Source: Hallerella sp. (GTDB lineage Bacteria > Bacillota_I > Bacilli_A > RFN20 > CAG-826). From it: a stretch of 64,000 nucleotides of DNA. Positions 45,681-62,518 of this stretch are shown one piece after another; the stretch's first letter is position 1; the number at the start of each line of letters is the position of its first letter. The stretch is taken from positions 117,426 through 181,425 of the forward strand of contig CAVJFO010000015.1 in NCBI GenBank assembly GCA_963648925.1. Direction: 5' to 3'. Position numbers and translations under genes: made by a program. The notes beneath the pieces were generated by a model. It made no database searches, was not told the origin of the DNA, and was given only the letters and a program-made list of their open reading frames with translations.

Positions 45681-46898
45681 ATGGCAAAAGAGAAATTCAA
45701 CCGTGACCGCACCCACGTTAACGTTGGTACAATCGGCCACATCGACCATGGTAAGACAACCTTATCAGCCGCAATCATGCACGTTCTTAGCTTAGTTGGT
45801 AAAGAAACCAACGGTGTCGAAGGAAACGCAAAAGACGTCGGATACGCTGGTATTGACTCTACACCAGAAGAAAGAGCTCGTGGTATCACCATCAACTCTG
45901 CTCACGAAGAATACGAAACAAAAACCCGTCACTATGCCCACGTTGACTGCCCAGGGCACGCTGACTACATCAAGAACATGATCACCGGTGCAGCTCAAAT
46001 GGATGCTGCTATCCTTGTCGTTGCTGCAACTGATGGCGTCATGCCACAAACCCGTGAACACGTCCTTCTTGCTCGTCAAGTCGGTGTTCCAGCAATCATC
46101 GTCTTCCTTAACAAGTGCGATATGGTCGACGATCCAGAATTAGTCGACTTAGTCGAAATGGACGTCCGTGACCTTCTCACTTCCTATGGATTCCCAGGAG
46201 ACACTCTCCCAGTTATCCGTGGTTCCGCTTTGAAAGCCGGACAAGTCGCTTCCAGCAAAGATGCTGATGCCGCTTGCGTCCTCGAATTACTCAAAGCTCT
46301 TGACACATACATCCCAGATCCAGTCCGTTCTGATGATAAGCCATTCTTAATGCCTATCGAAGACGTTATGACAATCTCTGGCCGTGGCACAGTCGTTACT
46401 GGCCGTGTCGAACGTGGTGTTGCCAAGATGAACGACGAAGCTGAAATCGTCGGTATCCGTCCAACAATCAAGACAGTCATCACTGGTCTTGAAATGTTCC
46501 GTAAGACCCTTGACTTTGTTGAGTCTGGCGATAACGCCGGTGTTCTTCTCCGTGGTGTTACCCGTGACCAAGTCGAACGTGGCCAAGTCCTTGCTAAGCC
46601 AGGATCCATCGTTCCACACGACAAATTCACTGCTACAGTCTACGTCCTTACAAAAGAAGAAGGCGGCCGTCACACTGGCTTCTTAAAAGGCTATCGTCCA
46701 CAATTCTTCTTCCGTACAACCGATATCACCGGTACAATCGACCTCCCAGCCGATGTCGAAATGGTTATGCCTGGTGATCACGTTACCTTCACAGTTAGCT
46801 TAATCCACCCAGTTGCTCTTGAAGCTGGTACTAAGTTCTCCATCCGTGAAGGCGGCAAAACCGTTGGTTCCGGACAAGTCGTTGACATCCTTCACTAA
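45681..46898 (+). CDS. tuf: Elongation factor Tu
   Basis: Motifs [17 protein letters not shown] and NKCD. Full-length EF-Tu. Confidence 0.98.
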
Positions 46899-46928: not shown

Positions 46929-46957
46929 AGCCCTTGCGTTTGCAGGGGCTTTTTTTG
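46929..46957 (+). terminator. Rho-independent terminator after tuf
   Basis: 9-bp stem AGCCCTTGC/GCAGGGGCT with loop GTTT, followed by a T7 run. Confidence 0.75.
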
Positions 46958-47106: not shown

Positions 47107-48486
47107 ATGATCGATATATTGTTGTTGCCGTTCATGTGCTTTTCTATTTCTAATCCGCGTATTGCGAGTGTAGAAGTAGATAAAACGCCTATTCGTTTTA
47201 ATGCCATTGTTTCAACAACTGGGGACAAATTATATATGGATGGCGATTATAAAAAGACGTACGGTGAGAAGAAGATGAAACTACCATCTTATAAAAGCGA
47301 ATACACAGAAAAAGTTGCTGGAAACAAAACTTATCTAAATGCTGAGAAGATGGAATTACCTACTGGAAATTTAAGATTTTACAATCGCTCATTGGACATT
47401 AACGGATCGTTTTCTAGAGCTAATGCTGCTGATGTGTATTATGTGAATCTTGATGATCGCATGATCACTGAATTTCGGTTTGTTACGGAAGACGCAAATG
47501 TTACCGCATACGTTTCAGATGAGAACAGGACAAAACTATTTGATGTTTTTCAAAAGGACGAATCTGAAGGGTTGCCTAGTGGTTTACTAACAAAGGGCGC
47601 TTATTATTTAACAGTTAAGACTAATGGCCAAAAGGACACTAATTACAAAATAAACATGTTTGCCTCATATGCCGATTCAAAAGAAAAAGTTACGATAGAT
47701 GAGGAATTCATGAATAAATATACCGCTCTTGTTTGGGAATCCGATTATGTTCCTGGCGCGGTTGATCCAATTGACGGAACGATTATAAGGCGAGACTTCA
47801 AACCAGGAAGAAGAAGTCCTTGGACTCATACAGGAAGATTCGTTTCGGGAGAATTAAACAAACCATATCTTTATAGATCTGTTTATATTTGGACAAATGA
47901 GGCATTTGAAGATTTGCACAACGACATAGAAGTTTATAAAGCTAAACTATTGGAAGTATCGAGCAAAGCTAATGATATAGTTGCTAAATGGAGTACAACC
48001 TCGAGCGTGACTGGGGCAGCTGGCTTCTTCGTAACATTTTTACCTGTTGTAGGCGGAGTTTTAGGGACGGCCCTTGGCGGAGTAAGCTTAGCGACTTCAA
48101 TAATCGCCGCCTGTTTAGGAAGTTCAAGCGAAATTAACGCCGATTTAGCAATAAGACAGTGTGAAAGATTTCTTGGAGCCTTGGATGCGGCAAGCACGGG
48201 AACGATAATTTCGTTTAAAGAATGCGTTACTGTAAAATCTTATAAAAATGATAGTAAATACACTAAACGCCATTACCAAAAAATAAGATTTCAATCGTAT
48301 TTAGATTTCTCGAGTGGCGATACGTATGATATCACTGAGAAAAAAGCTGGCAAAGGCGACTATCCATCCTACGACGCCCATCTTCGTCATGGCGCAAAGA
48401 ATCAAATAATTAGCGATTGCCAAGGGACTTTCACGGCATACGAGAGCTACAAAGACATCAAACCCTTGACGTCTTTAGAGGATTGA
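47107..48486 (+). CDS. Hypothetical protein: PPC-like beta-sandwich domain plus a helix / Gly-Ala-rich hydrophobic hairpin / helix module (candidate membrane-active toxin)
   Basis: Residues ~100-190 fit the pre-peptidase C-terminal (PPC) pattern (YYVNLDD...GAYYLTVKTNGQKDTNYKINMF). Residues ~300-340 read VTGAAGFFVTFLPVVGGVLGTALGGVSLATSIIAACLG and are flanked by predicted helices. No classical signal peptide. Confidence 0.5.
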   Translation: MIDILLLPFMCFSISNPRIASVEVDKTPIRFNAIVSTTGDKLYMDGDYKKTYGEKKMKLPSYKSEYTEKVAGNKTYLNAEKMELPTGNLRFYNRSLDINGSFSRANAADVYYVNLDDRMITEFRFVTEDANVTAYVSDENRTKLFDVFQKDESEGLPSGLLTKGAYYLTVKTNGQKDTNYKINMFASYADSKEKVTIDEEFMNKYTALVWESDYVPGAVDPIDGTIIRRDFKPGRRSPWTHTGRFVSGELNKPYLYRSVYIWTNEAFEDLHNDIEVYKAKLLEVSSKANDIVAKWSTTSSVTGAAGFFVTFLPVVGGVLGTALGGVSLATSIIAACLGSSSEINADLAIRQCERFLGALDAASTGTIISFKECVTVKSYKNDSKYTKRHYQKIRFQSYLDFSSGDTYDITEKKAGKGDYPSYDAHLRHGAKNQIISDCQGTFTAYESYKDIKPLTSLED

Positions 48487-48490
48487 TAAT

Positions 48491-49129
48491 ATGAATAAAA
48501 ACAAAAACGTACTTACATTTCTTTGCCTCTTTCCATTATTTTTAACCTCTTGCAACAAGCAAAACACGATTCAGGAGGAGATGGAGACTCTAGAGAACAA
48601 TGGCTGCTTTTTATTGAACAAAACTTATGAACGTATCTTTAAAGGCTTTTATGGCACAGAATGCAAAGGAGAGTTCTTTGACATATATTCGAAAGAACTT
48701 AAAAATACTGGCGAATTTGAATATTTAAAAACCATTTCAAAAACGGATGTATATACAGCGGGCATATTCAACGGTCAGCAAACTAGATTTTATTTTCGCG
48801 ATGGAATAAATGTCGGCTTTAGCACGAGGGACCCCCAATTTGGACAATCCCTTTTCGGTTGCACAATAGGAAGCCCAACCCGCGATTATCTTAATGATGG
48901 TTGGAATAATTCTCTAATCGCGAAATTTAATGAACGTGGTTGGACTTGTACATATGAAAGAGATGAGGAAGAACGTTCAGAACTTTCCGTGTTTGACCTA
49001 GATGAACCCATTAGCCTAGTCCATAGATATATGAAATATAAAGACAAATTGCATGTCAATTTCGGATTCGAAAATAAGTATTCGTTAAATTGGAACATGA
49101 TGTCTTTGGAAATCTACCTAGATGAATGA
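48491..49129 (+). CDS. Hypothetical lipoprotein, paralogue A (immunity-like)
   Basis: Lipobox LTSC. About 55% identical to the next gene. Lies 4 nt after the upstream CDS. Confidence 0.65.
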   Translation: MNKNKNVLTFLCLFPLFLTSCNKQNTIQEEMETLENNGCFLLNKTYERIFKGFYGTECKGEFFDIYSKELKNTGEFEYLKTISKTDVYTAGIFNGQQTRFYFRDGINVGFSTRDPQFGQSLFGCTIGSPTRDYLNDGWNNSLIAKFNERGWTCTYERDEEERSELSVFDLDEPISLVHRYMKYKDKLHVNFGFENKYSLNWNMMSLEIYLDE

Positions 49130-49162
49130 ACTCAACATCATCATAATTGGAGGACTGAAAAT

Positions 49163-49789
49163 ATGAATAAAAACAAAAGTGTGCTTGCGTTCCTTTGCGC
49201 TATTCCGTTGCTAGCAACTTCATGCAACAAGCAAAACACAATCCAAGAGGAGATGACTGTTTTAGAGAACAATGGTTGCTTTTTATTGAACAAAACTTTT
49301 CAAGAGATCTATGACAAGATAGGCTTTCACGATTTTTATGATATTTATTCTGGCGAACCAAAATTCACAGGTAAATTTCAATATTCTAAGACTATTGGTA
49401 AAACTGACGTCTATACGGCTGGAACATTCAATGGTCAGGAAACGAAACTCTATTTCCGCGATGGCATAAATGTCGGATTTAGCACGAGGGACCCGCAATT
49501 TGGCTTATCGCTTTTTGGCAGAACAATAGGAAGTCCAACGCATGGTTATATTAACAATTGGTGGGATAATTCAGTAGTTGCTAAATTTCACGACCGTGGG
49601 TGGGTATATGATTATGATAGGTTAGAGGAAGAATATTCGGAACTTTCCGTGTTTGATATAAATCCACCTGAATATACCGTTCCTAGATATATGTATTATC
49701 AAGAAAAACTCCATGTTAATTACGGCATGAAACCTTTAGAATCGCTATGTTGGAATATGGTGTCTTTAGAAGTGTATCTTGATGAATAA
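49163..49789 (+). CDS. Hypothetical lipoprotein, paralogue B (tandem duplicate)
   Basis: Lipobox ATSC. Long stretches of near-identical DNA with paralogue A (for example the FRDGINVGFSTRDPQFG region). Confidence 0.65.
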   Translation: MNKNKSVLAFLCAIPLLATSCNKQNTIQEEMTVLENNGCFLLNKTFQEIYDKIGFHDFYDIYSGEPKFTGKFQYSKTIGKTDVYTAGTFNGQETKLYFRDGINVGFSTRDPQFGLSLFGRTIGSPTHGYINNWWDNSVVAKFHDRGWVYDYDRLEEEYSELSVFDINPPEYTVPRYMYYQEKLHVNYGMKPLESLCWNMVSLEVYLDE

Positions 49790-49896: not shown

Positions 49897-51186
49897 ATGG
49901 AAGAAAAAGATTTATTACAAATAGCGCCAGTCTCTAAAAGAGCTCTCTCTTTTATCATTGATTTCGTTCTGGCATTTTTACTTGGCATCATTGTCAATAG
50001 CACCCTCACAAGCACATATTTATTTAACGCTTTAGGAGGAGGAACCTTACAACAGGATTATTATTCTTTTGCCATTGATTCTGGACTTGTCAACTCAACG
50101 AAGAATGACGATGGAACAATTAAAACGATTTTCCTTTATTCTTATGCGCCTGACGGCAAGGAAAATACGACATTACAATATGTTGCAACCCCTAATGGTG
50201 AACTCGGTTATGAGGCGTATCTTGATATCGTTTGGGATTATTACACGAATTTCTATCCAAATGATTCAAGAATGATTCAACCTGAAGAATATGTTTATAG
50301 CAAAGAAGCCTTAGATTCTTATAAAACCTACGTTTACAAAGATATATTCCTTTTACCAAATCCTGGTAGCGTGGAAGGAAAAAGCGATGCTACATTGTAT
50401 TCAAGTGACGAGAATCAAATCTATTTCCAATATGATGTTAATGAAGACGGAACGCCTAATTTAAGCGTTAAGCCAACTCTTAGAGAGAATATCAAAAAAG
50501 ACCTTGAAGATGATATAAAAAGAAGCGATACATTGAAAAACCTTCGCGATTATTTCCTTGGAATAACGGAGTCATCATCCTCTCTTTCAATCGCCGGAAC
50601 TGGCATTTATTATCAAGCTGCCTTACATATGGAAGGGCAATCTGGCTCTAACCAAACATATTTCTCTAACATTTACACAAAAGTTAGCTGGATTAGCTGG
50701 GAATGCTCTCTTGTCGCATTATTACCATTCTATTTAATCATTTTCTATCTCGTTCCTGTCTTTGATAAAAAAGGCAGAACACTTGGCAAATGGGCTCTTG
50801 GAGTTGTCGTTATCAATAAAGATGGCACATATATGAAACTCTATCAAAGATTGCTTAGGCCTTTATATATGGTTGTCCTTTGCTCATTGACCTTAATTCC
50901 AAATAACGCCATATCTTTCTTAGCCTTTGGCGCGGTCGCTTTACTTGATTTTGGCTTTGCCTCATTTGGAAAAACGAGCCAATCCTTACATGACAAGCTA
51001 TTTAGAACCCTTGTTGTAACAAGAAAGAAATCCACAATCTTCAAAACGGTTGAAGAAAAAGAAGAATACCTCAAAAAAGAAAACGAAAGAATCGAAGAAG
51101 AAAGATCTATCAAAGTCCCTTCAACAGGCAAAAACCTTGATTTAGGTTCTTTGATTGAAGAAGAAGCAAAAGAAAATAATAATTAA
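49897..51186 (+). CDS. RDD-family membrane protein with a ~210-aa ectodomain insertion (paralogue 1)
   Basis: TM1 motif RALSFIIDFV, GRTLGKWALGV and SLHDKLFRTLVV match RDD (PF06271) motifs. Charged C-terminal tail. Confidence 0.65.
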   Translation: MEEKDLLQIAPVSKRALSFIIDFVLAFLLGIIVNSTLTSTYLFNALGGGTLQQDYYSFAIDSGLVNSTKNDDGTIKTIFLYSYAPDGKENTTLQYVATPNGELGYEAYLDIVWDYYTNFYPNDSRMIQPEEYVYSKEALDSYKTYVYKDIFLLPNPGSVEGKSDATLYSSDENQIYFQYDVNEDGTPNLSVKPTLRENIKKDLEDDIKRSDTLKNLRDYFLGITESSSSLSIAGTGIYYQAALHMEGQSGSNQTYFSNIYTKVSWISWECSLVALLPFYLIIFYLVPVFDKKGRTLGKWALGVVVINKDGTYMKLYQRLLRPLYMVVLCSLTLIPNNAISFLAFGAVALLDFGFASFGKTSQSLHDKLFRTLVVTRKKSTIFKTVEEKEEYLKKENERIEEERSIKVPSTGKNLDLGSLIEEEAKENNN

Positions 51187-51416
51187 TCTAACTTTGTTTT
51201 TAGGATATAACAATCATTCTTGCGATCATAGGCAATGATATAAGGAGAATTAGTTTTCGAAAGAAAATCCCTTAAATCATTGATATATCGTTTAAATCTC
51301 AAATCATTTATTAAGAGTTCATCTAAAACATCTCGTTTGTAGATGACTCTTTTTTCTTCTAACTTGCTATAGAGATATAAGAGGCAGAATGTTTTTGAAA
51401 ATCCATTTTTTCTCAT
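51183..51416 (-). CDS. Small hypothetical protein (77 aa), doubtful
   Basis: ORF only. No RBS and no family recognised. It lies in a 490-nt gap convergent with the upstream RDD gene. Confidence 0.2.
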   Translation of the reverse strand: MRKNGFSKTFCLLYLYSKLEEKRVIYKRDVLDELLINDLRFKRYINDLRDFLSKTNSPYIIAYDRKNDCYILKTKLD

Positions 51417-51675
51417 ATTTATTTGATTTTATATTTTTCTTCAACAAATAAAAACTGAATTCGTTTTGTTACTGGCGAATTGCTTAATTTTTACAATCGA
51501 GAGTTTTTTGATATTTCATAATCAGGAAAATTGACTATAATAATATTCGGAAGGACACCTTCCATAACATAGCAACGACACCCCCGTTCCTTTAGGAATG
51601 AAAAATTAAAAACGTTTTGTTTCTTTTTGTTTACCGGCGGTGTTTTTCTTTTTGTTGAATAGAAAGGTAATTTTA

Positions 51676-53811
51676 ATGAAAACAAAAAAATTGTGTTTGC
51701 TAGCCTTAGGCAGCATCTTCATGTTGGCAGGTTGCGGTGAAACCAATTCTAGCGAAAGTAACGCTAAAGAAGAAAGTTCATCCGTAAGTCAAAGCCAAGA
51801 TGAAATCTCATCAAGCGAATCTTCCTCCGAGTCTTCTAACGAAAGCTCATCCTCATCTTCATCCTACGATTTCGATTATGAATTAACGACTGTTGCTGAA
51901 GCTATTGAAATTGCTAACCAACACCAAACTGCTACGACAGAACGTTATTACATTTTTGGAACCATCACCGAGATTAGCGATGCAACCTATGGTTCAATGA
52001 CAATCGAAGATGAAACTGGTTCGATTTACGCTTACGGAACATATTCCGCAGACGGAGTTGATCGTTATAGTGTTTTAGAGAACAAACCACAAGTTGGAGA
52101 TCAAGTTGTCTTATATTCAACGCTTGTAATGTATAATGGCACTCCAGAAATCAAATCTGGCTGGATTGTTTGGCAAAGCACTAAAGAAAAAGAATTCAAC
52201 GAAGACGACTATGCGGCAAAAACTATTGCTGAAGCTCGTGAAATGAGCGCTGGATCCTTGGTTAAAGTTAGTGGAGTTGTCGCTAGAATAACCTATGCAA
52301 ACGGCATGATTCCATCTGGATTCTACGTTATCGATAACACATCCTCCATTTACATTCATTCAACCCTTGCTGCTAAAGTAGAAGAAGGAAATAAGATCAC
52401 TGTTTGTGGATCTGTTGATTTCTGGATTCTTGAAAATGAAACAACTAGCGCTGGTAAAGTCGGTTACAAAGGCTCATGCCAATTAAGCGATATAACAATT
52501 ACCGCAAACGACAATTCAACAGAGAACACCTTTGATAAATCCTGGATAGAGGAAAGTACCGTTAAAAATATTGTGGATACCCCTGCAACGGAGAATATCA
52601 CCAACAAGATATTCAAGGTTAATTCCTATGTGAAGAAAGTAAGCGCCCCAGGCTTTGTTAATTACTATTTAGATGATATTGATGGAGTTACTGGCTCCTA
52701 CGTCTATACTCAATGCAATGGCAGCGACTTCTCCTGGCTTGATGAATTTGACGGAAAAATTTGCACAGTTTATTTAACCGCTATCAATGCTAAATGCACT
52801 GGCGCTGGCGCCATTTGGCGTTTCATGCCAATCGAGGTAATCGATGAAGAATATCAATTCGATACAAAAGACGTTAACGAATACGTTTGGACTTATCATC
52901 TTGATGGACTTTTCCGTGAATCATATACCGGTGACCCAAATCTTGAAGTCCCAACAAGCGTTTCCTCTGAACTTTTAGGATTTGAAAACGCCACAATTTC
53001 TTATTCTTCTTCAAATACCGATGTTGCATATTTTGAAACAACCGAAGAAAACACCATTTTCCACACAAAAGATAATGGCAAGGCCACAATCACCATTGAC
53101 ATTGATTATGGTACAAACGAAACTCTTACTAAAACCTTTGATGTTACAGTCGCAAAAACTTCATATGATGATGCATTAACCGTAAAAGAAGCGATTGATG
53201 CAGCAAACCAAGAAGAAGTAATCGTTAAAGGAATTGCCGGTCCTTCACTTGTTAACCAAGTCGGATTCTACTTAATTGATGAGACTGGCGTTATTGCCGT
53301 TAAGACTACCTCAGAAGCAATGGCAGAAATCTCTTTAGGAAACGAAGTCGTCTTTAAAGGCACTAAAACTATTGGCTACGGAACAGTCGAAGGTTCTGAA
53401 ATTGCCGGAGAATCCTGTATTTTAGATTCAACTCTCGTTACCAACTTATATGGCAAACACGACTATTCAAGAGATACCTTCATCACAGATAAAACTCTTG
53501 CTGACGTTTACGCTTTAGATTATAAAGTTGATCACTCAACGGAAGTCTATACTGTTAAAGGCAAGATCAGCAAGACCGAAACTTCCTACTACACAACTAT
53601 TGCCATAGTTGATGGAGATACGAAACTTTCGCTTTATTGCTCTAGCGCAAATCAATATAACTGGTTAGCAAATGCCTTTGACGCGGATACTGAAGTTACC
53701 CTTGATATTGCTCCATGTAACTGGAACAAGAAAAAATACTGGGCTGGTTGCGTACTCTCTGCAACTGATGGAACCACTAGAGTTGATAACACCTTGAATT
53801 ACAGCAAATAA
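51676..53811 (+). CDS. Surface lipoprotein with a Ser-rich linker, at least three OB-fold-like repeats and a Big_2-like Ig domain (putative nucleic-acid binding)
   Basis: Lipobox LAGC. Repeats of the pattern 'TV.EA....g..v.v.G.i..i.....f.i.D.TG.I.vy'. Big_2-like segment ATISYSSSNTDVAYFE...ATITIDIDYG. Confidence 0.6.
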   Translation: MKTKKLCLLALGSIFMLAGCGETNSSESNAKEESSSVSQSQDEISSSESSSESSNESSSSSSSYDFDYELTTVAEAIEIANQHQTATTERYYIFGTITEISDATYGSMTIEDETGSIYAYGTYSADGVDRYSVLENKPQVGDQVVLYSTLVMYNGTPEIKSGWIVWQSTKEKEFNEDDYAAKTIAEAREMSAGSLVKVSGVVARITYANGMIPSGFYVIDNTSSIYIHSTLAAKVEEGNKITVCGSVDFWILENETTSAGKVGYKGSCQLSDITITANDNSTENTFDKSWIEESTVKNIVDTPATENITNKIFKVNSYVKKVSAPGFVNYYLDDIDGVTGSYVYTQCNGSDFSWLDEFDGKICTVYLTAINAKCTGAGAIWRFMPIEVIDEEYQFDTKDVNEYVWTYHLDGLFRESYTGDPNLEVPTSVSSELLGFENATISYSSSNTDVAYFETTEENTIFHTKDNGKATITIDIDYGTNETLTKTFDVTVAKTSYDDALTVKEAIDAANQEEVIVKGIAGPSLVNQVGFYLIDETGVIAVKTTSEAMAEISLGNEVVFKGTKTIGYGTVEGSEIAGESCILDSTLVTNLYGKHDYSRDTFITDKTLADVYALDYKVDHSTEVYTVKGKISKTETSYYTTIAIVDGDTKLSLYCSSANQYNWLANAFDADTEVTLDIAPCNWNKKKYWAGCVLSATDGTTRVDNTLNYSK

Positions 53812-53828
53812 TTAACAACAAAGAATGA

Positions 53829-53856
53829 CGGAGTCAGAAATGATTCCGTTTTTTCT
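53829..53856 (+). terminator. Rho-independent terminator
   Basis: Stem ACGGAGTC/GATTCCGT followed by a T6 run. Confidence 0.5.
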
Positions 53857-53891
53857 TTTGAGCGCCATTCTTTTTATTTATAATAAAAATC

Positions 53892-55079
53892 ATGCAAAAA
53901 GATTACGTTGAAAAAGAAGAAATCAAAACCGATAAAAACGGCGTACTAATCGTTAGGGGTTCTTCATTAAGAAGAGCTTTAGCGGAGTTGGCGGATATCT
54001 TAACTGCTTTTATTTTAGCCATAACGATTTATGGTGTGGGCTTTCAACGCTTGTTTGGCTATGACCACTATACAAATGAGATGAGCAAGGTTTCTTCTTC
54101 TATGACCTCGTTCATGATTGAACATAACTTATATAAGAAAAGCGATGACGGAAACATTTTGCTAAAAAGCGATTTGTCCTCTTATTGGTCATATTACTAC
54201 CTTGCTAACTCTGATTCTTCATATAAAAAAAGAAAGATTTATGAGCCAATAAAAGACTATTACACGGTCACAAGGATTTCATCTTTTGCTAGGATGAGCC
54301 AATACGAATACAACACGGAAATCCTCAAATTGCCAAAAACGCTTGATGGCTCTTATGAAGATAGCGTTTTCATATACGATTCAACAAGCGCGGATCCTTT
54401 AAATAACGAGCCAATATTCAAAGAAGAAATAGCAACAAACCTTAACACGTATTATTTAGGCAATACTGATGCTTATGAACCAAAAAACGCCTATCAAACA
54501 GTTTCTACATTCTTCTCAAATATCTACGACGTTGCTTTTTCAGAAGCGGTAAAAGATGAGACATATATGAATTTAGTCTTAGAATTTGCCTCCAAGATGT
54601 GGTCACGCTCTTACCTTCAATCCGCGGCAATAATTTCTTCCTATTTGCTTGGGGCAATTATCACTTTTTTACTTCTCCCTTTAATTCAATTGAGTGGCTT
54701 GACCCTAGGAAAAAGAGTAGCAAAGCTTCAAGTTAACGATCAATATGGTGATAAACCGCGTTGGTATTCTTTCTTGATTAGGGGTTTAGTGCAAATAATA
54801 TGTTACTGTTTCATGATTCCCCTTATCGGAGTTATGTCTTACGGATTCGGGGCTTTCGAGATGCCTTTGCTAGAGATAGGTTCGTTTAACTTAAACTTAT
54901 CTTTATTTGCAATTCTGGGCTTGTTATTAACCATTCTTTCCTTAGTTATGATGCTAGTAACCCCAGGAAAACAATCATTACACGATTTAGCTTCCTTGAC
55001 TTATGTTAATACCTCGGATATAAAAGTTATCCGTGATGAACAAAGCAAATTAGAGAAAAACGATCATGGAACAAAATAA
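53892..55079 (+). CDS. RDD-family membrane protein with a large ectodomain (paralogue 2)
   Basis: LTLGKRVAKL and SLHDLASLTYV RDD motifs. Ectodomain shares FFSNIYD and DDGNILLKS motifs with paralogue 1. Confidence 0.6.
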   Translation: MQKDYVEKEEIKTDKNGVLIVRGSSLRRALAELADILTAFILAITIYGVGFQRLFGYDHYTNEMSKVSSSMTSFMIEHNLYKKSDDGNILLKSDLSSYWSYYYLANSDSSYKKRKIYEPIKDYYTVTRISSFARMSQYEYNTEILKLPKTLDGSYEDSVFIYDSTSADPLNNEPIFKEEIATNLNTYYLGNTDAYEPKNAYQTVSTFFSNIYDVAFSEAVKDETYMNLVLEFASKMWSRSYLQSAAIISSYLLGAIITFLLLPLIQLSGLTLGKRVAKLQVNDQYGDKPRWYSFLIRGLVQIICYCFMIPLIGVMSYGFGAFEMPLLEIGSFNLNLSLFAILGLLLTILSLVMMLVTPGKQSLHDLASLTYVNTSDIKVIRDEQSKLEKNDHGTK

Positions 55080-56124
55080 AACGGCTAATACATTAGAATA
55101 TTTCAAAGCGCCATTTGGCAAAAGAATGGTTTCGATAATAATTGAAATTTTTCTTCTTTCATTTGGCTTTTTAGCTTTTCTTTTTTGTTCGCGTCTTATC
55201 GTTGAAAGAATGCCGTTATATACTGATTCATTCGACACATATATCAATATTTCAAAGGATTCTGGATTATACGTTTGCGATAAAACAACCGATAATAACC
55301 TTGTGACTCTTACCGAATATTATGGAAGCAAATCATACGAAACGCAAAATAACGTTATCGAAAAAGCGCTCACTAAGTTTTACACCTTAGAAGAATTCTT
55401 TTCCCAAGATGAAAATAGCGATACGTATGGCCCAAATATTTATTACAAACAAAAAATAGGCGAGACACGTATTGGAAACGATGAAGGAGTGGATTATTTT
55501 TTATTGGACGCAACAGGTACCCCAAAGAAAAACCCTTCATTTACTGAAGAGAAGATGAACGCCTTTTACCTTACGGCATATGATCGCGCTGTTTCCTATA
55601 TTCAAAACAATGAATCTTACCTTCAAGCAAGAAACGTCTTAACAATTTATATCAACCTCGTTTTGATACCTCTTTCGATTGTTCTTTCTTTTTTGATATT
55701 CGAAGTTCTCATCCCTTTAACAATCGGACGAAGAGGCAAACAAACCTTAGGGATGAAATCAATGAAACTTTCTCTTCTTTCTGTTGATGCGCTCTCTTGC
55801 AAGGCAAATAGATTTATCGCTAGGCAAGCGATTCAACTCTTTTTGATTATCTTGTTATCTCTTGTCTCTTTTGGCATTCCTTTAATCGTTTCTTTTTCAA
55901 TGATGATATTTAGAAAAGATGGCCAATGCCTCCATGATTATTTATCTGGAACCTATATGGTTGATTCATCCGAACAATCTGTTTATTTAACTTACGAAGA
56001 GATGAATAACCTCAAAAAGAAAGCGGAAGATAGCTACAATAAAGGCATCCAATCTTCAAGAAAAAATCAAAAAGACATTCCTTTGGGAGATGACTCAATT
56101 TGGCGCAATTTACGCGATAAATGA
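55066..56124 (+). CDS. RDD-family membrane protein with a large ectodomain (paralogue 3)
   Basis: GRRGKQTLGMK and CLHDYLSGTYMV RDD motifs. Overlaps paralogue 2 by 14 nt. Confidence 0.6.
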   Translation: MEQNKTANTLEYFKAPFGKRMVSIIIEIFLLSFGFLAFLFCSRLIVERMPLYTDSFDTYINISKDSGLYVCDKTTDNNLVTLTEYYGSKSYETQNNVIEKALTKFYTLEEFFSQDENSDTYGPNIYYKQKIGETRIGNDEGVDYFLLDATGTPKKNPSFTEEKMNAFYLTAYDRAVSYIQNNESYLQARNVLTIYINLVLIPLSIVLSFLIFEVLIPLTIGRRGKQTLGMKSMKLSLLSVDALSCKANRFIARQAIQLFLIILLSLVSFGIPLIVSFSMMIFRKDGQCLHDYLSGTYMVDSSEQSVYLTYEEMNNLKKKAEDSYNKGIQSSRKNQKDIPLGDDSIWRNLRDK

Positions 56125-56236
56125 GCAAATGTATTCGCTTACATTTATCTGAAAACTATTTATTAAAAATAGTGGTATTGAATTAAAGAGTTTTTTCTCT
56201 TAAAATTTGGTATGCAAAAAATGATTGGAGACGCTC

Positions 56237-57394
56237 ATGGAGATTAGACTAAAAAATCTTACCAAATGCTTCCCAGGAAACCCAAAAAAGGGAATTCCTG
56301 ATACTTACGCAGTGAATGCTTTGGACGTTACCATTCCTGATGGAAAATTAGTTGGACTTTTAGGCCCTTCTGGATGTGGTAAATCAACAACTCTTTATAT
56401 GGTTGCTGGTCTTTTGGAACCTACCGAAGGTGAAATTTGGTTTGGTGATGAAGATGTTACGGATCTTGAACCTGAAAAAAGAGGAATTGGCTTGGTTTTC
56501 CAAAACTATGCCCTTTACCCACATATGACAGTTTATAAGAATGTAGCCTTCCCTTTAACCAACCTTCGTATCGAAGAAAAAGTTCTTGATCAAAATGGAA
56601 ACGAAGTTTTAGATGAAACCGGAAAACCATATATCAAAAAGAGAAAGTTAACCAAGGATGAAATCGATAAAATCGTCCGTGAAACCGCTAAAATTGTCCA
56701 AATCGAAGAATATTTGGAAAGAAAGCCAAATCAACTTTCTGGTGGTCAGCAACAACGTGTTGCCATCGCTAGAGCTTTAGTCAAAAAACCAAAAGTTCTC
56801 TTACTTGACGAACCTCTTTCAAACTTAGATGCTCGTTTAAGACTTCAAACTCGTGAAGAAATCAGAAGAATTCAACAATCTACTGGCATTACCACGATAT
56901 TCGTTACCCATGACCAAGAAGAAGCTATGTCTATCTCCGATGAGATTGTAGTTATGAAGCTTGGCGTTGAACAACAACGTGGTGTTCCTCAAGATGTTTA
57001 TAACAACCCATGCAACAAGTTCGTTGCTAACTTCTTAGGCACTCCTCCGATCAACCTTTTCAAAGGACATATCAAAGATAACAAGGTCTACGTTGGTGAA
57101 GAAGTAGTCCGTGAAATTACCGAAAAAGATGTTCCAGATCAAGAATGTACAGTCGGTATTCGTCCAGAAGGTATCATCGTTGACGAAAAAGGAACATTCA
57201 CATTCAATTGCGAGCGCATCCTTACTATGGGACGCGATATTATGCTTGCTTCCGAACATCCTGAAGCAATCTCTAATACCAAATTCTTAGTTGACGCCTT
57301 CGTTAAAGTTTCAACAGGCGTGGTTCACGCTTCTATAAAACCTCATAAATGTTTTGCTTTCTCTTTAGAAGGGAATGAGGAGAGGATTATCTAA
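56237..57394 (+). CDS. ABC transporter ATP-binding protein, MalK/UgpC/MsmX type with a C-terminal TOBE-like domain
   Basis: Walker A GPSGCGKST, signature LSGGQQQRV and Walker B LLLDEP. Confidence 0.92.
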   Translation: MEIRLKNLTKCFPGNPKKGIPDTYAVNALDVTIPDGKLVGLLGPSGCGKSTTLYMVAGLLEPTEGEIWFGDEDVTDLEPEKRGIGLVFQNYALYPHMTVYKNVAFPLTNLRIEEKVLDQNGNEVLDETGKPYIKKRKLTKDEIDKIVRETAKIVQIEEYLERKPNQLSGGQQQRVAIARALVKKPKVLLLDEPLSNLDARLRLQTREEIRRIQQSTGITTIFVTHDQEEAMSISDEIVVMKLGVEQQRGVPQDVYNNPCNKFVANFLGTPPINLFKGHIKDNKVYVGEEVVREITEKDVPDQECTVGIRPEGIIVDEKGTFTFNCERILTMGRDIMLASEHPEAISNTKFLVDAFVKVSTGVVHASIKPHKCFAFSLEGNEERII

Positions 57395-57396
57395 GC

Positions 57397-58482
57397 ATGG
57401 AAAATTCTGCGACCACTGCGAAAAAAGGCAATATATTCTCCAGATTCTTTAAGAAGAAGGAGAGAGTTTCTGCCGATGCTGGAGAAAAGAATAACTGGAA
57501 GGCCTGGCTTTATCTTGCCCCTGTAATTATTCTTTTATCAGTTTTTACTTTTTATCCTTTAATTAATACTATCGTAATCGCCTTCCTTAGGGATTATGAC
57601 TACACGACCCAAACAAATACTGGATTTACCTTAGATAATTTCTTGACCGTTTTAACTTTAGCGGGTAAGGATCCAGCATCAAATTTGGTTTATCGCTGGA
57701 ATTGTTTCTATGATGAAACGCTTGGTGGCTTAGCCTATATCAATGAGGCTGGCGCCGCAACACGTGTTTATTTCCAAACGGATGTCTTAACATACGCATT
57801 GCCAAACACGATGCTTATCACCTTCGTTACCGTTCCAGTATCTATAATCATCGCATTATTGATATCTGTATGCCTTAATTCAATTAAAGCCTTTAAAAAG
57901 GTTTTGCAGACGATTTTCTTTATTCCTTATGTTACTAACGCTATTGCCGTCGGCATGGTCTTTGCTGTTTTATTCGATTCGCAAGGTATTTTGAACTTTA
58001 TCTTCGGTCTTGGCAATCACAAATGGATTGATGGTGGCGCTACATGGGGATCCGGTATGCTTGCCTTATGCATTTACATCGTTTGGCATGCTTTACCATA
58101 TAAAATCCTTATATTCTTATCAGCTCTTCAAAACATCGATAAACAATACTATGATGCAGCTAAAATCGACTGCGCTGGCAAATGGAAAACATTCTGGCAT
58201 GTTACAGTTCCAATGCTTTCCCCACAAATTCTTTATATTATGATCACCTCCTTTATCGGATCATTTAAAGAATACACATCAGTCGTTGGCTTATTCGGCT
58301 CTCCATCCACAGATGGCGGTTCGACAAAGAACATGTACACGATTGTTTATTACATTTACGAATGCTTAAGCGCGCCTACAACCGTTTCTAGAGGTGCAGC
58401 AGCAGCAGTCTTACTCTTTATCATCATTATGATATTCACCGCAATTCAATTCCAAGTTTCTAAGAGGAGGGTTCATTATTAA
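57397..58482 (+). CDS. ABC transporter permease (CUT1, MalF/UgpA-like)
   Basis: Six TM helices. EAA-like loop (AAKIDCAGKWKTFWHVTVP). Confidence 0.85.
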   Translation: MENSATTAKKGNIFSRFFKKKERVSADAGEKNNWKAWLYLAPVIILLSVFTFYPLINTIVIAFLRDYDYTTQTNTGFTLDNFLTVLTLAGKDPASNLVYRWNCFYDETLGGLAYINEAGAATRVYFQTDVLTYALPNTMLITFVTVPVSIIIALLISVCLNSIKAFKKVLQTIFFIPYVTNAIAVGMVFAVLFDSQGILNFIFGLGNHKWIDGGATWGSGMLALCIYIVWHALPYKILIFLSALQNIDKQYYDAAKIDCAGKWKTFWHVTVPMLSPQILYIMITSFIGSFKEYTSVVGLFGSPSTDGGSTKNMYTIVYYIYECLSAPTTVSRGAAAAVLLFIIIMIFTAIQFQVSKRRVHY

Positions 58483-58483
58483 T

Positions 58484-59533
58484 ATGGCTTACGATTCAAG
58501 AAATTTTATCCAACGCCTTCTCAAAATGAAGTCTCGTGAAGAGAAACAAGCTGAAAGAGAAGCAAAACCTGAATATCAAGCAATTAACACTGCTTCGATG
58601 TCATTAGTCATCAAAGAAGGAAGAGCAGATGCTGTTCAACTTCAAAAAGCTCAAAAAATTGGACGTGTGATTACTTCAGTTATTACATATGCTTTCCTTT
58701 TGTTTATGAGTGTTATCATCCTTTTCCCATTTTATTGGATGATTATCACCTCCTTAAAGAGCACGACGGAAATCCGTTCTTCAACCCAAACATTCTTCCC
58801 TGCAACAGTCTTATGGACAAACTACATTACAGTTTTTAACACATTTGACTTTATTACTTATGTAGGCAACACATTGGTTGTTGGCATTATCTCTACCATT
58901 GGTACGATAATTACGACAATTCTTGCCGCATTTGCCTTTGCTAGACTTAATTTCAAAGGGAAAGACTTCATCTTTGCGATTTTATTGGCAACAATGATGA
59001 TCCCTGGCGAAATGATGGTTATTACAAACTATATCACCGTCGCTAAATTACCTTGGTATGAATTTGGCGTTGGACAAGTAACCGGATGGCTTACATATAA
59101 AGATTCGGTATTCGCCTCGATGATCGTTCCTTTCTGGGTATCAGTCTTCTATATTTATTTATTAAGACAAAACTTCAAACAAATCCCTAATGAACTTTAT
59201 TTGGCTGCTAAGGTTGATGGAAAGTCTGATTGGCAATTCCTCTGGCACGTCATGGTTCCACTAGCTATGCCTACTTTGATTTCTATATTTATCCTTAAAT
59301 TAATGGGTACTTGGAACTCTTATGTTTGGCCTCAACTCGTTACGGCAGGAAATGAATCTTGGAGATTGGTCACTAACGGTCTTCGTTCATCCTTCTCAAC
59401 AACTGCAGGAGAACCGCAATATGGCATTCAGATGGCGGCGACAATCCTTGTAACAGTTCCGTTACTATTATTGTTTATTTTCTTCCGCAAGTATATTATG
59501 AAAGGCGTTGGCCGCGCCGGTATTAAAGGCTAA
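58484..59533 (+). CDS. ABC transporter permease (CUT1, MalG/UgpE-like)
   Basis: Six TM helices. EAA loop (AAKVDGKSDWQFLWHVMVP). Confidence 0.85.
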   Translation: MAYDSRNFIQRLLKMKSREEKQAEREAKPEYQAINTASMSLVIKEGRADAVQLQKAQKIGRVITSVITYAFLLFMSVIILFPFYWMIITSLKSTTEIRSSTQTFFPATVLWTNYITVFNTFDFITYVGNTLVVGIISTIGTIITTILAAFAFARLNFKGKDFIFAILLATMMIPGEMMVITNYITVAKLPWYEFGVGQVTGWLTYKDSVFASMIVPFWVSVFYIYLLRQNFKQIPNELYLAAKVDGKSDWQFLWHVMVPLAMPTLISIFILKLMGTWNSYVWPQLVTAGNESWRLVTNGLRSSFSTTAGEPQYGIQMAATILVTVPLLLLFIFFRKYIMKGVGRAGIKG

Positions 59534-59591
59534 GGTTAAATTTGGTTACATTTCGTAAGAATGTGATATAAAAAAGAAAATGGAGAGAAAA

Positions 59592-61037
59592 ATGTCTAAG
59601 AAAAAATTATTAACAGGCGTTCTTGCAGTCTTATCTGCAGCATTCATCGCGACAAGCTGTGGAGAAACTGATAAGGACAACGGCAGTTCCAATGCCGATG
59701 ACGCTACAAGCAGCCAATCATCTTCTAACACAGCTGATACATCAGCTTTCGATCAACAAGTTACCGCTTTAGGCGATTTGAAAAAGCTTAGCTGTGAAGT
59801 TACCTTCTGGCACACAATGGGTAAATCCAACCAAACTTATTTGGATACTTTCATCGAACAATTCAACAAAGTCTATCCAAACATCAAAATCACCGGTTCC
59901 CAACAAGGTGGGTATGACGAGCTAAAGACCGCTGTTTCTAACGCAATTCCAGCTGGAACAACCCCAACGATGACATATTGCTACCCAGATCACGTTGCCG
60001 ACTATCTTCCTTCCGATTCTGTCGTCAAACTTGACAATTTCATGAATTCTAAAGTCATTGGTTTAGGAGTTGATAATGGTCTTGGCGATGGTGATGCTGA
60101 CGATTTCATCCAAACATATTTGCATGAAGGCGATAATTACACCGTCTCTGGCAAAAAAGTCGAAGGCTATTACTCAATGCCTTTCTCTAAATCAACAGAA
60201 GTTCTTTTCTATAACAAAGACGCTTTTGAAACAAATGGCTGGCAAGTTCCTGAAACTTGGGATCAAATGTGGACTCTTTGCGAAACAATCAAAGCAACAT
60301 ATGGTGATGATGTTACTCCATTAGGATACGACTCTGATGCAAACTTCTTTATCACTTATTGCGCACAAAACAATATCCCATATACAACTGGCGAAGGCAG
60401 TGAACACTTCCTTTTCAATAACGATAAAGCAAAAGCTTTCGTTAACACAATTAAGGATTACTCCGCTAATGTTGGCAGCGGCTATTGGACTTCCCAAACT
60501 CAACTTGGTTCAGGAACCTATACCTCAACAAAATTCACCAATGAAGAAATCTTCATGTCTATTGGCTCTACTGGCGGAACCACATATAACGTTTCAGAAA
60601 ATTTCGAAACTGGCGTTGCAGCTTTACCACAATCCGATTTAAATAACGGAAAAGTCATCATGCAAGGACCTTCCATCTGCTTTATGTCTGATTCTACCTT
60701 AGCTCAAAGAGTTGGTGCTTGGTTATTCTATAAATTCATCACCAATACTCACAATTCAGCTATTTGGTCTTCTAGCACCGGTTATAACCCAGTTAGAACA
60801 TCCTCTTTCACCGATGAGGCATATGCTACATCTAAATCTAGCTTAGTTAACACAGTTCTCCAATTTACAGGCACTGGATCTTCCTATGCTGATTGGTACT
60901 ACACATCTCCATCTTTCAAAGGCTCTTCAGCCGCTAGAACTCAAATCACCAACTTAATGTCTGGTGTTTTGACTGGTACAAAAACTGTTGATCAAGCTTT
61001 CGAAGATGCATATCAAAACTGCTTATTTGCAGCTTAA
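59592..61037 (+). CDS. ABC transporter substrate-binding lipoprotein (family 1), copy 1
   Basis: Lipobox ATSC. FWHTMGK and CYPDHVA motifs shared with copy 2. Confidence 0.85.
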   Translation: MSKKKLLTGVLAVLSAAFIATSCGETDKDNGSSNADDATSSQSSSNTADTSAFDQQVTALGDLKKLSCEVTFWHTMGKSNQTYLDTFIEQFNKVYPNIKITGSQQGGYDELKTAVSNAIPAGTTPTMTYCYPDHVADYLPSDSVVKLDNFMNSKVIGLGVDNGLGDGDADDFIQTYLHEGDNYTVSGKKVEGYYSMPFSKSTEVLFYNKDAFETNGWQVPETWDQMWTLCETIKATYGDDVTPLGYDSDANFFITYCAQNNIPYTTGEGSEHFLFNNDKAKAFVNTIKDYSANVGSGYWTSQTQLGSGTYTSTKFTNEEIFMSIGSTGGTTYNVSENFETGVAALPQSDLNNGKVIMQGPSICFMSDSTLAQRVGAWLFYKFITNTHNSAIWSSSTGYNPVRTSSFTDEAYATSKSSLVNTVLQFTGTGSSYADWYYTSPSFKGSSAARTQITNLMSGVLTGTKTVDQAFEDAYQNCLFAA

Positions 61038-61052
61038 TTCATAACAACACAT

Positions 61053-61078
61053 ATAGGCGGAATCTTTTTTCCGCCTAT
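61053..61078 (+). terminator. Strong hairpin (10-bp stem) between the two binding-protein genes; weak U-tract, so a possible partial terminator or mRNA stabiliser
   Basis: Perfect inverted repeat ATAGGCGGAA-TCTTTT-TTCCGCCTAT. Confidence 0.35.
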
Positions 61079-61105
61079 ATTCAAATTTAGACGAGGTACA
61101 CGATA

Positions 61106-62518
61106 ATGAAAAAAAGAAATCTAGCTTTGTTATTAGGAATAGGGGTTTTATCTCTTGCAGGATGCGGTGAGACGGTTAATTCTTCTACTGATGCTTCAAA
61201 CTCGAATGATGGAAATAGCCAAAACGGCTCTTCTAGCACGAACTCTGGCAAGGTAGAAGTTGAATTCTGGCACACCATGGGCAAGGCCAATCAAGATATT
61301 CTTGAAGGCATGATAAAGGCTTTTGAAGCAGAAAATCCAGACATCACCATTAAACAAAGTGCTGCTGCTGGCGGCTATGACGATTTAGAGCAATTGATTC
61401 TTAAGAACGTTGCTACAAGCGGCTTACCAACAATGGCTTTCTGCTATCCTGATCACGTTGCTGAATATCTTAATAGCGGAAGTAGTGGAATCGTAACTGA
61501 TTTAACCTCGTTTATAAATGATCCTGAATTAGGATTCACGGTAGAAGATGGTTCCCACGTCGATGAAGATGGGAATACTGTCTATGGCGTTGATGACTTC
61601 GTTCCAACATTCTGGGAAGAAGGATGCAATTACACCAAAGAAGGTGTTTATAGCGTTCCATTTGCCAAATCCACCGAAGCTTTATTCTATAACGTAGATA
61701 TGTTTGAAGAATATGGTTGGGAAGTTCCTCAAACTTGGGATCAAATGTGGGCTCTTTGCAAAGAAATCAAAGAAATGGATTTCCCTGAGGTTCAAGCTCC
61801 ATTAGGATACGATTCCGATTCAAACTTATTTATCTCTTTATCCGAACAAATGGATCTTCCATATACTAGTGCGACTGGAAATCACTATTTGTTTGATAAT
61901 GCACAATCTAAGGCTATGGTTAGCGATCTTAAGGCAAAATATGACCAAGGGTTGTTCATCACAAAAGGATCTTCTGGAAATAACACCTACACCTCAACAA
62001 AATTTACGAATGGCGAAGTGTTAATGACAATTGGATCAACTGGTGGCACCACATATAACCAAACGCAAAACTTCACTGTCGGAGTTGCTGAGCCTCCAGC
62101 ATACGATCTTTCAAAGAAAGCCGTCATTTCTCAAGGCCCATCGATTTGTTTCTTCAATGCCGCCTCATCGAAAGCAGCTTCTCCAGCTCAACTTAAGGCC
62201 GCTTGGAAATTCTATAAATTCATTTCAAACGCCGAGAATAGCACCTTATATTCCGTTTCAACCGGTTACCAACCAGTAAGAACATCATCTTATGAAACTG
62301 AAATATATAAGAATTTTGCTTCTGGTACCACAAGCCTTTTAAATAGAGTTGCAAACGTTTCTTCGACCATGCTTGATTCATATTTCAATTCTCCAGTTTT
62401 CATTGGCTCAGCCAAAGCTAGAGACGAAGTCGGCTCTTTAATTAGTGCGGTTCTCCTCGGAACAAAAGATGTCGATAAAGCATTTGAAGACGCTTTAGCT
62501 AATTGCGTTATGGGATAA
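61106..62518 (+). CDS. ABC transporter substrate-binding lipoprotein (family 1), copy 2
   Basis: Lipobox LAGC. Paralogous to copy 1. Confidence 0.85.
   Translation: MKKRNLALLLGIGVLSLAGCGETVNSSTDASNSNDGNSQNGSSSTNSGKVEVEFWHTMGKANQDILEGMIKAFEAENPDITIKQSAAAGGYDDLEQLILKNVATSGLPTMAFCYPDHVAEYLNSGSSGIVTDLTSFINDPELGFTVEDGSHVDEDGNTVYGVDDFVPTFWEEGCNYTKEGVYSVPFAKSTEALFYNVDMFEEYGWEVPQTWDQMWALCKEIKEMDFPEVQAPLGYDSDSNLFISLSEQMDLPYTSATGNHYLFDNAQSKAMVSDLKAKYDQGLFITKGSSGNNTYTSTKFTNGEVLMTIGSTGGTTYNQTQNFTVGVAEPPAYDLSKKAVISQGPSICFFNAASSKAASPAQLKAAWKFYKFISNAENSTLYSVSTGYQPVRTSSYETEIYKNFASGTTSLLNRVANVSSTMLDSYFNSPVFIGSAKARDEVGSLISAVLLGTKDVDKAFEDALANCVMG

Follow-up and report, generated by a model that had tools for sequence, protein, structure and literature searches.

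RDD proteins form a large and widespread family of membrane proteins, found from bacteria to humans, whose function is debated. They are usually compact, with short loops between their transmembrane (TM) helices. Here we analyze a stretch of 64,000 nucleotides (nt) from Hallerella sp. (contig CAVJFO010000015.1; the whole stretch is hereafter called the window), which encodes three RDD proteins, RDD1, RDD2 and RDD3, that each carry a large ectodomain inserted between the first two helices. Their genes lie next to those of an ATP-binding cassette (ABC) importer, two substrate-binding protein (SBP) lipoproteins and a staphylococcal-type nuclease (SNase) lipoprotein. Systems described previously resemble parts of this locus. 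In mycoplasma operons such as P80-MAG_5040-MAG_5050..5070 of M. agalactiae, the genes of a sugar-type ABC transporter are co-transcribed with those of two lipoproteins, an SBP and an SNase (PMC3585158). The counterpart of MAG_5040 in M. hyopneumoniae is mhp379, and these operons have been proposed to import nucleic-acid precursors (PMC3585158). Among RDD proteins, SppI complexes with the SppA protease and inhibits it (PMC7568657), and Mam1B/Mas1B of Mycobacterium, which combines an RDD domain with an extracytoplasmic domain, is encoded in the mce1 lipid-import operon (PMC1810536; bioRxiv 10.1101/2025.03.26.645568). For the family as a whole, a conserved intramembrane binding site facing the cytoplasm has been suggested (PMC12419801).

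Like the mycoplasma operons, the window clusters SBP lipoproteins and an SNase lipoprotein with one ABC ATPase and two permeases. The importer is of the Ugp/MalK type (CUT1; 56225..59533, plus strand), with an ATPase of 389 amino acids (aa) and permeases of 361 and 349 aa that match the Pfam models ABC_tran and BPD_transp_1. It is followed by the two SBP lipoproteins (59580..62518, plus strand; 485 and 470 aa; SBP_bac_8/SBP_bac_1), which are weakly similar to the P68 family surface lipoprotein model. The best NCBIfam matches are UgpC for the ATPase, UgpA and UgpE for the permeases and UgpB-like for the SBPs. The SNase lipoprotein (62532..64000, plus strand) has a lipobox and a long C-terminal extension, runs past the end of the window, and scores 40.6 bits against PF00565 (cutoff 21). 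The order and number of the genes differ from the mycoplasma arrangement: the SNase gene comes last in the window, whereas it lies between the SBP and ATPase genes in M. agalactiae, and there are two SBPs. Unlike the hosts of the mycoplasma operons, window-type organisms read TGA as a stop codon, as is evident from the open reading frames (ORFs), which stay intact under table 11. The length of the ABC ATPase varies from 385 to 653 aa across lineages (L001, L018 and L024-L028, compared with 56225-57394 in the window). The long forms match ABC_tran twice and recall the M. agalactiae MAG_5050 ATPase, which has been described with two ATP-binding domains (PMC3585158).

Like Mam1B/Mas1B, the window proteins join an RDD module to an extracytoplasmic domain and are encoded in a multi-subunit importer locus. 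In Mam1B, however, the Mas domain follows the RDD helices, whereas here the insert lies between helices, and the transporter class (Mce versus CUT1-type ABC) and the phylum differ as well. Pfam places no domain of any kind on the inserts of RDD1-RDD3 and the transporter is CUT1-type, so the locus does not belong to the Mas-domain/mce group, and no sequence relationship was detected between Mam1B and the window ectodomains. The resemblance is best regarded as an analogy, not as membership. No studied RDD protein with this insert architecture or with an ABC-importer context was found in the literature.

Family membership was assessed with the gathering score of the Pfam RDD model (PF06271, 24.1 bits). 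All three proteins exceed it, with 57.1 bits for RDD1 (49897..51186, plus strand, 429 aa), 47.3 bits for RDD2 (53892..55079, plus strand, 395 aa) and 36.9 bits for RDD3 (55066..56124, plus strand, 352 aa). The initial annotation, made from the sequence alone, had recognized three RDD proteins of these lengths at these positions, each with a large insertion between TM1 and TM2. As encoded, the proteins align only to profile positions ~33-137, because the insert splits TM1 from the remainder of the domain. When the insert was deleted in silico (residues ~47-256 in RDD1, 55-238 in RDD2 and 49-186 in RDD3), profile positions 2-135/137 aligned, with scores of 63.1, 52.9 and 41.9 bits, respectively. 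As deletion restores the full profile, the extra segment is an insertion within the RDD domain, between TM1 and TM2, and both statements of the annotation hold. RDD1 thus comprises TM1, the ectodomain, TM2, a cytoplasmic loop with the GK motif, a TM3-TM4 hairpin, the HD motif and a charged tail.

All three proteins have the family's signature residues: an Arg ahead of TM1, an acidic residue within that helix, the GK loop and the HD motif. In RDD1, R15 and D22 are nearly invariant and G297, K298 and H365-D366 are conserved. In RDD2, R27, R28 and D35 are invariant and H364 and D365 are conserved, while RDD3 has K19-R20 and an LHD motif, with the TM1 Asp conservatively replaced by Glu. In passing the Pfam threshold and keeping these residues, the window proteins are like YckC and SppI/YteJ of B. 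subtilis and the RDD protein of Halobacillus andaensis. They lack the short-loop, compact layout, as 143-219 aa are inserted between TM1 and TM2, and they differ from the studied proteins in that the 140-220-aa insert is folded and that three paralogues occur in fixed order beside an ABC importer. Judged by their sequences, RDD1-RDD3 represent a variant RDD architecture and are still members of the family.

The tails past the last TM helix are 71 (RDD1), 39 (RDD2) and 69 aa (RDD3) long and rich in K/R and D/E. The initial annotation described them as long and charged; the charge is evident in all three, but the length does not hold for RDD2. In most RDD1 orthologues, even those that are 25% identical, the cytoplasmic C-terminus carries the conserved motif ILDLSTINxxR[ED]EAxxxTSFDEFE (window ~51080-51186; RDD1 alignment columns ~440-480; L018:10001-11320), which looks like a short linear interaction motif. 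In the window clade the motif is shortened to NLDLGSLIEEEAKENNN. A covariation of RDD1 tail length with ABC ATPase length was considered and rejected, as L010, L013 and L015 combine the full tail motif with a short ATPase.

The inserts of all three proteins are acidic and aromatic-rich and measure ~140-220 aa. The ectodomain of RDD1 (50026..50682, plus strand; aa ~44-262) is mixed alpha/beta, with an isoelectric point (pI) of 4.3 and 14% aromatic residues; those of RDD2 and RDD3 span aa ~52-241 (nt 54045-54614) and aa ~45-187 (nt 55198-55626), respectively. K+R residues are less dense in the insert (0.08-0.10) than in the N-terminus, the TM2-TM3 loop and the C-terminus (0.15-0.25), and therefore, following the positive-inside rule, the insert faces the outside of the cell. 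For RDD1, a confident AlphaFold2 model based on 19 sequences (predicted local distance difference test score (pLDDT) 86.9, predicted template-modeling score 0.73) places a long TM1 at residues 12-45, an alpha/beta ectodomain at 46-254 and TM2 at 255-289, followed by a cytoplasmic beta-hairpin loop, the TM3/TM4 hairpin (315-357), a cytoplasmic helix and a disordered tail. In the model of RDD2, the ectodomain (residues ~60-230) has a pLDDT >90 and the membrane core is weak. The order of elements is similar in the two modeled ectodomains: a helix, a beta-hairpin with a DDG turn, helices and short strands, and long helices leading into TM2.

Conservation is concentrated in the inserted part. The RDD1 ectodomain holds 26 of the 37 invariant RDD1 positions and is under strong purifying selection. 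In an alignment of 40 sequences with ~27% identity, G, P, L and aromatic residues make up the conserved positions of the ectodomain, and no conserved set of polar catalytic-type residues was found. This pattern suggests a module for binding or scaffolding, not an enzyme. Because neither Foldseek nor sequence and profile searches of the PDB detected a relative of the RDD1 ectodomain, the modeled fold may be new. The idea that the acidic ectodomains dock basic lipoproteins was rejected, since all exported proteins here are acidic (pI 4.3-4.9), the SNase included.

The membrane core and the ectodomains both bear on whether the three proteins, with 12 TM helices in total, could form an autonomous transporter or ion antiporter in which the ectodomains act as a vestibule or gate. 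The H. andaensis RDD protein conferred Na+(Li+,K+)/H+ antiport, for which conserved R/D residues were required (PMC5996927), and by alignment the TM1 R and D/E, the GK loop and the HD motif appear to be retained in each of the three paralogues. However, no salt or pH phenotype was seen for SppI, which is 39% identical to the H. andaensis protein (PMC7568657). A transporter role would also leave unexplained both the large conserved ectodomains and the attachment to a complete ABC importer that has two permeases of its own. We consider this explanation quite improbable.

The three proteins had been called an expansion of paralogues with shared ectodomain motifs, and their relationship is borne out by less diverged relatives and by profiles, not by the window sequences alone. 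In BLASTP, the window paralogues align essentially over the membrane core only (23-32% identity); the RDD2-RDD3 alignment extends ~50 residues into the ectodomain (E = 4e-5), and no ectodomain aligned significantly. Profiles of the ectodomains alone, made from close orthologues, gave weak matches (P = 3e-4, 0.1 and 0.036). The paralogues of lineage L018 are more informative. For instance, its 378-aa protein matches the 321-aa paralogue over 332 residues (E = 2e-16) and the 439-aa paralogue with E = 1e-19, in both cases with the ectodomains included. The same 378-aa protein also links two of the window paralogues: its end-to-end alignments cover 388 aa with RDD1 (E = 3e-16) and 369 aa with RDD3 (E = 1e-10). 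In addition, when five distant RDD2-like proteins were combined into a profile, it matched the families of both RDD2 (338 columns, E = 9.5e-27) and RDD1 (317 columns, E = 1.9e-20). From the L018 alignments and these profile matches it follows that the whole protein, ectodomain included, was triplicated long ago, and on this sequence evidence RDD1-RDD3 are ancient full-length paralogues. The triplication is already present in lineages whose RDD1 and EF-Tu are 25-30% and 77-82% identical to those of the window, respectively, so the set is an ancient triplication rather than a local expansion.

One of the two proposed shared motifs is retained. In the AlphaFold2 models of RDD1 and RDD2, the DDG motif lies on equivalent beta-hairpins that follow the first helix of the ectodomain, and it recurs in relatives as SGL-x(n)-DG. 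The other motif fails, as profile alignment pairs FFSNIY of paralogue 2 with DYFLGI of paralogue 1; the match between YFSNIY and FFSNIY is probably coincidental.

Across lineages, the conserved unit consists of an RDD set adjoining the genes of a Ugp-like ABC importer and of SBP and SNase lipoproteins, and tuf usually lies immediately upstream. One or more RDD genes adjoin the importer in eleven lineages (the window clade, L001, L018/L020, L022, L024, L025, L026, L027, L028, L029 and L017), and nine of them have all three RDD genes. SBP genes are found in every one of the eleven except L017, and SNase genes, assigned by Pfam matches, in eight (window, L001, L018/L020, L022, L026, L027, L028 and L029). 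In the window clade, the order is tuf, RDD1, a small ORF on the minus strand, an OB-fold lipoprotein, RDD2, RDD3, the ABC ATPase, two permeases and the SBP(s). In L018/L020, L022, L025, L027 and L028, where RDD1 is only 25-35% identical, the RDD genes lie directly upstream of the importer, and SBP and SNase genes follow in most. L024 keeps the arrangement with three single-gene insertions, and in L017 the gene of a homologous ABC ATPase (52% identity) follows an RDD1-type gene at a distance of ~400 bp. In L029, an inversion (L029:11519-21470) has put genes on the strand opposite to tuf and RDD1, in the order SBP, SBP, SNase, a 159-aa protein, a 907-aa protein (Big_2), RDD2 and RDD3. The inverted RDD2-RDD3 pair lies downstream of the SNase gene, yet it stays in the cluster near RDD1 and the small ORF.

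The linkage has outlasted the divergence of EF-Tu (77-87% identity to the window in L018, L024, L025, L026, L027 and L028, 84% in L016 and 93% in L001), the spread in GC content, several independent insertions between tuf and RDD1, single-gene insertions inside the cluster and the L029 inversion. The initial annotation saw a coherent surface module here; taken together with the ABC and nuclease genes, whose linkage is kept in the eleven lineages, that view is upheld. It had also reported a 14-nt overlap of RDD2 and RDD3, which the ORFs confirm. In every lineage that has both genes they overlap, by 4-29 nt, and in L018, L020 and L025 the first and second RDD genes also abut or overlap. The conserved RDD2-RDD3 overlap fits translational coupling and stoichiometric co-assembly.

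Because the three-gene set is fixed, the overlap is conserved and the attachment to importer, SBP and SNase genes is persistent, we consider the best explanation, which we advance tentatively, to be that the RDD proteins form a hetero-oligomeric accessory complex of a nuclease-importer system. From the gene neighborhood we infer the physical assembly, the contacts with importer, SBPs and nuclease, and the imported substrate. RDD1, RDD2 and RDD3 would assemble into a hetero-oligomeric membrane complex, which would serve the neighboring Ugp-like ABC importer as an accessory subunit. This complex would dock, organize or regulate the lipoprotein partners of the importer, that is, the two SBPs and the staphylococcal-type nuclease. 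On this view, the locus as a whole would form a surface system that digests and imports nucleic-acid-derived or other phosphoester nutrients, in uncultured, mycoplasma-like Bacilli with apparently reduced genomes. SppI and Mam1B/Mas1B provide precedents for RDD proteins that act as partner-bound accessory subunits. A more specific version, in which an RDD heterotrimer physically couples the surface nuclease and the SBP lipoproteins to the importer as an accessory or gating subunit, is rather unlikely as it stands.

The same synteny could instead be historical only, if the genes merely happen to share an old block near tuf and the RDD proteins serve a general function in the envelope, such as membrane or lipid-linked precursor homeostasis. 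The tuf gene lies upstream of the first RDD gene in 15 fetched loci, and in eight further loci the sequence starts too close to the RDD gene for tuf to be seen. Fusions of RDD domains to VanZ-type lipid-modifying domains are frequent, and the suggested intramembrane site of the family faces the cytoplasm (PMC12419801), both in keeping with an envelope role. On the 11-kb contig L016, a PstS-like gene comes after the only RDD1-type gene, and no homologue of the ABC genes is visible. However, the tuf-RDD junction has been interrupted repeatedly by insertions (window/L005, L024 and L016/L017), and in L017 tuf is absent upstream of the RDD1-type gene, where an M13 peptidase is found. By comparison, the pairing of RDD and ABC genes survives inversion and is kept in every contig >12 kb except window-clade ends of the L010/L013 type. 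The divergence is also deep, with RDD1 identities of 25-35% and GC contents of 36-52% across the measured lineages. We find a purely historical linkage unlikely.

Several observations count against an accessory complex of the nuclease-importer system, and L016 is one of them. All lineages share the tuf-proximal position, so that the synteny could partly reflect inherited order and not selected linkage. In L026, RDD1 occurs with ABC, SBP and SNase genes, and an unrelated 676-aa membrane protein replaces RDD2 and RDD3. The described mycoplasma SNase-ABC operons work without RDD genes (PMC3585158). The Ugp matches of the importer all fall below the equivalog cutoffs, and the substrate is thus not fixed by family. 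Finally, RDD1 of the window forms a separate convergent unit and the OB lipoprotein gene has its own terminator-like hairpin, so the cluster is not one transcript; transcription signals were taken from scans for consensus promoters and terminators.

The 676-aa protein of L026 (L026:11771-13801) and a protein of L024 (L024:14657-16120), 28% identical over 481 aa, belong to a membrane-protein family encoded directly upstream of the ABC ATPase in these two distant lineages. Members of this unannotated family start with a signal or TM helix, continue with a large outside domain and end in three TM helices. In two other distant relatives, L020:3839-5299 and L018:3839-5311 encode a protein of ~490 aa between rpoC and rpsL. 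An Endonuclease_1 domain in the L020 protein indicates a second extracellular-type nuclease near the same locus.

The small ORF beside RDD1 (51183..51416, minus strand) encodes a basic protein of 77 aa (pI 9.4); this gene and RDD1 are convergent, and their ends overlap by 4 nt. Orthologues adjoin RDD1 in most lineages, including L016, L022, L024 (upstream and divergent), L027 and L029. Searches of Pfam, NCBIfam and the PDB gave no reliable match for this ORF, and three orthologues match Mga-HTH weakly (E ~0.008); a regulator is one possibility. Such a regulator would be the target of the RDD proteins if these were transmembrane sensors, with ectodomains that detect a ligand (e.g., nucleic-acid fragments) and an RDD core and tail that signal to the 77-aa protein. 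The tight linkage of the ORF to RDD1 in most lineages, whether convergent or divergent, is consistent with such a role, as are the strong conservation of the RDD1 C-terminal motif at low overall identity and the occurrence of RDD domains fused to signaling domains (PMC12419801). However, the protein has no recognizable DNA-binding family, the ORF is not adjacent to RDD1 in L018, L020, L025 and L028 although all three RDD genes are present there, and the window's own clade has only a truncated motif. A fixed order of three paralogous sensors would also be unusual. The sensor explanation is, in our view, quite improbable as well.

The OB lipoprotein that separates RDD1 from RDD2 (51640/51676..53811, plus strand) is an acidic protein of 711 aa, and its true start is probably the ATG at 51676. 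It has a lipobox (LAGC), a Ser-rich linker, an N-terminal OB domain and an internal repeat. The initial annotation had credited it with several OB folds. Direct evidence for the N-terminal OB domain comes from the orthologues: the window protein itself scores 23.7 bits against PF01336, below the cutoff of 27, while nine of ten orthologues match this model at E <= 0.01 (best 5e-8) and three match BOF. Further OB folds are only plausible, from the internal repeat of residues 181-371 and 500-682 (E = 3e-10), a two-domain unit of ~190 aa. A sequence-profile search of the PDB found no relative of the lipoprotein. The annotation had also described the RDD genes as bracketing it, and this position turns out to be incidental. 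The gene follows RDD3 in L001, is absent from six loci (L018, L020, L022, L025, L027 and L028), and is ended by its own terminator-like hairpin at 53827-53850. It is a lineage-specific accessory insertion.

Between the small ORF and the lipoprotein gene lies a divergent intergenic region of 260 nt (51417-51675). It contains a perfect inverted repeat with a 7-bp stem, GGAAGGACACCTTCC, at 51548-51564, which could be an operator or a minus-strand terminator.

Upstream of RDD1, tuf (45681..46898, plus strand; EF-Tu) is the conserved anchor of the locus and is followed by a terminator-like hairpin (46929-46950). The window carries an insertion between tuf and RDD1 (47107..49789, plus strand), which encodes a 459-aa protein with a Gly/Ala-rich hydrophobic stretch and two tandem lipoproteins of 212 and 208 aa that are paralogous (66% identical). 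Pfam and NCBIfam assign no family to the 459-aa protein or the tandem lipoproteins. The insertion is lineage specific, as only the window and L005 have it among the fetched loci. The window also contains rpoB/rpoC, rpsL-rpsG-fusA-tuf and apparently other ribosomal-protein operons. No RNA family was found anywhere in the window with Rfam at gathering thresholds, so that known ribosomal-protein leader families are either absent or too divergent to detect.

The ectodomain-bearing form of RDD is rare. An ectodomain-only profile of RDD1 retrieved 58 clusters at E <= 1e-3 (36 at E <= 1e-10) from 1.84 billion representative proteins. One of these was already known (P0015) and 57 were new. Types were assigned with our own RDD family hidden Markov models. 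All but one of the 57 new hits (56) are RDD1-type; 51 of them have TM1, ectodomain and RDD core, and the other five are shorter and truncated. The one exception is a borderline protein of 1,324 aa. The ectodomain starts at residue ~42-50 in nearly all full-length hits, and the profile drew no RDD2 or RDD3 types among these representatives. A further profile homologue search mostly returned the same clade and added P0104 and P0105. The source names of the matches were only "uncharacterized RDD family membrane protein YckC" and "Predicted membrane protein/domain".

A detectable relative occurs in 13 of 185,579 species-level genomes, all of them metagenome-assembled. They are labeled Mollicutes, Bacilli or Bacillales, or bear bin names that are evidently wrong. 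Similarly, the titles of L005-L015 include Escherichia coli, Bacteroides uniformis and Alistipes communis, as well as Sodaliphilus sp., Prevotella sp. and Lachnospiraceae; these are evidently mislabeled bins and were not used for taxonomy.

We found no description of the RDD-insert architecture in the literature, and no link of RDD proteins to Mollicutes-like bacteria. Given also the 58 clusters and the lack of a Pfam model on the insert, the suspicion that this architecture was undescribed proved correct. The RDD family and the module of SNase and ABC genes were already known. The new elements are the inserted ectodomain, for which Foldseek and sequence searches gave no PDB relative, the ancient set of three paralogues and the conserved coupling to a nuclease-importer locus.

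The roles proposed so far for RDD proteins are those of an antiporter, a partner that inhibits a protease and a ligand-binding module. The conserved gene neighborhood described here offers a testable clue to RDD function. If the heterotrimer were confirmed, it would give the RDD domain its first mechanistic role, that of a transporter-associated membrane adaptor. The carriers are uncultured, mycoplasma-like bacteria represented only by metagenomes, with apparently small genomes, and they would be expected to rely on scavenged nutrients. The locus suggests that, in these relatives, additional membrane components belong to the scavenging system of nuclease and ABC transporter known from mycoplasmas.

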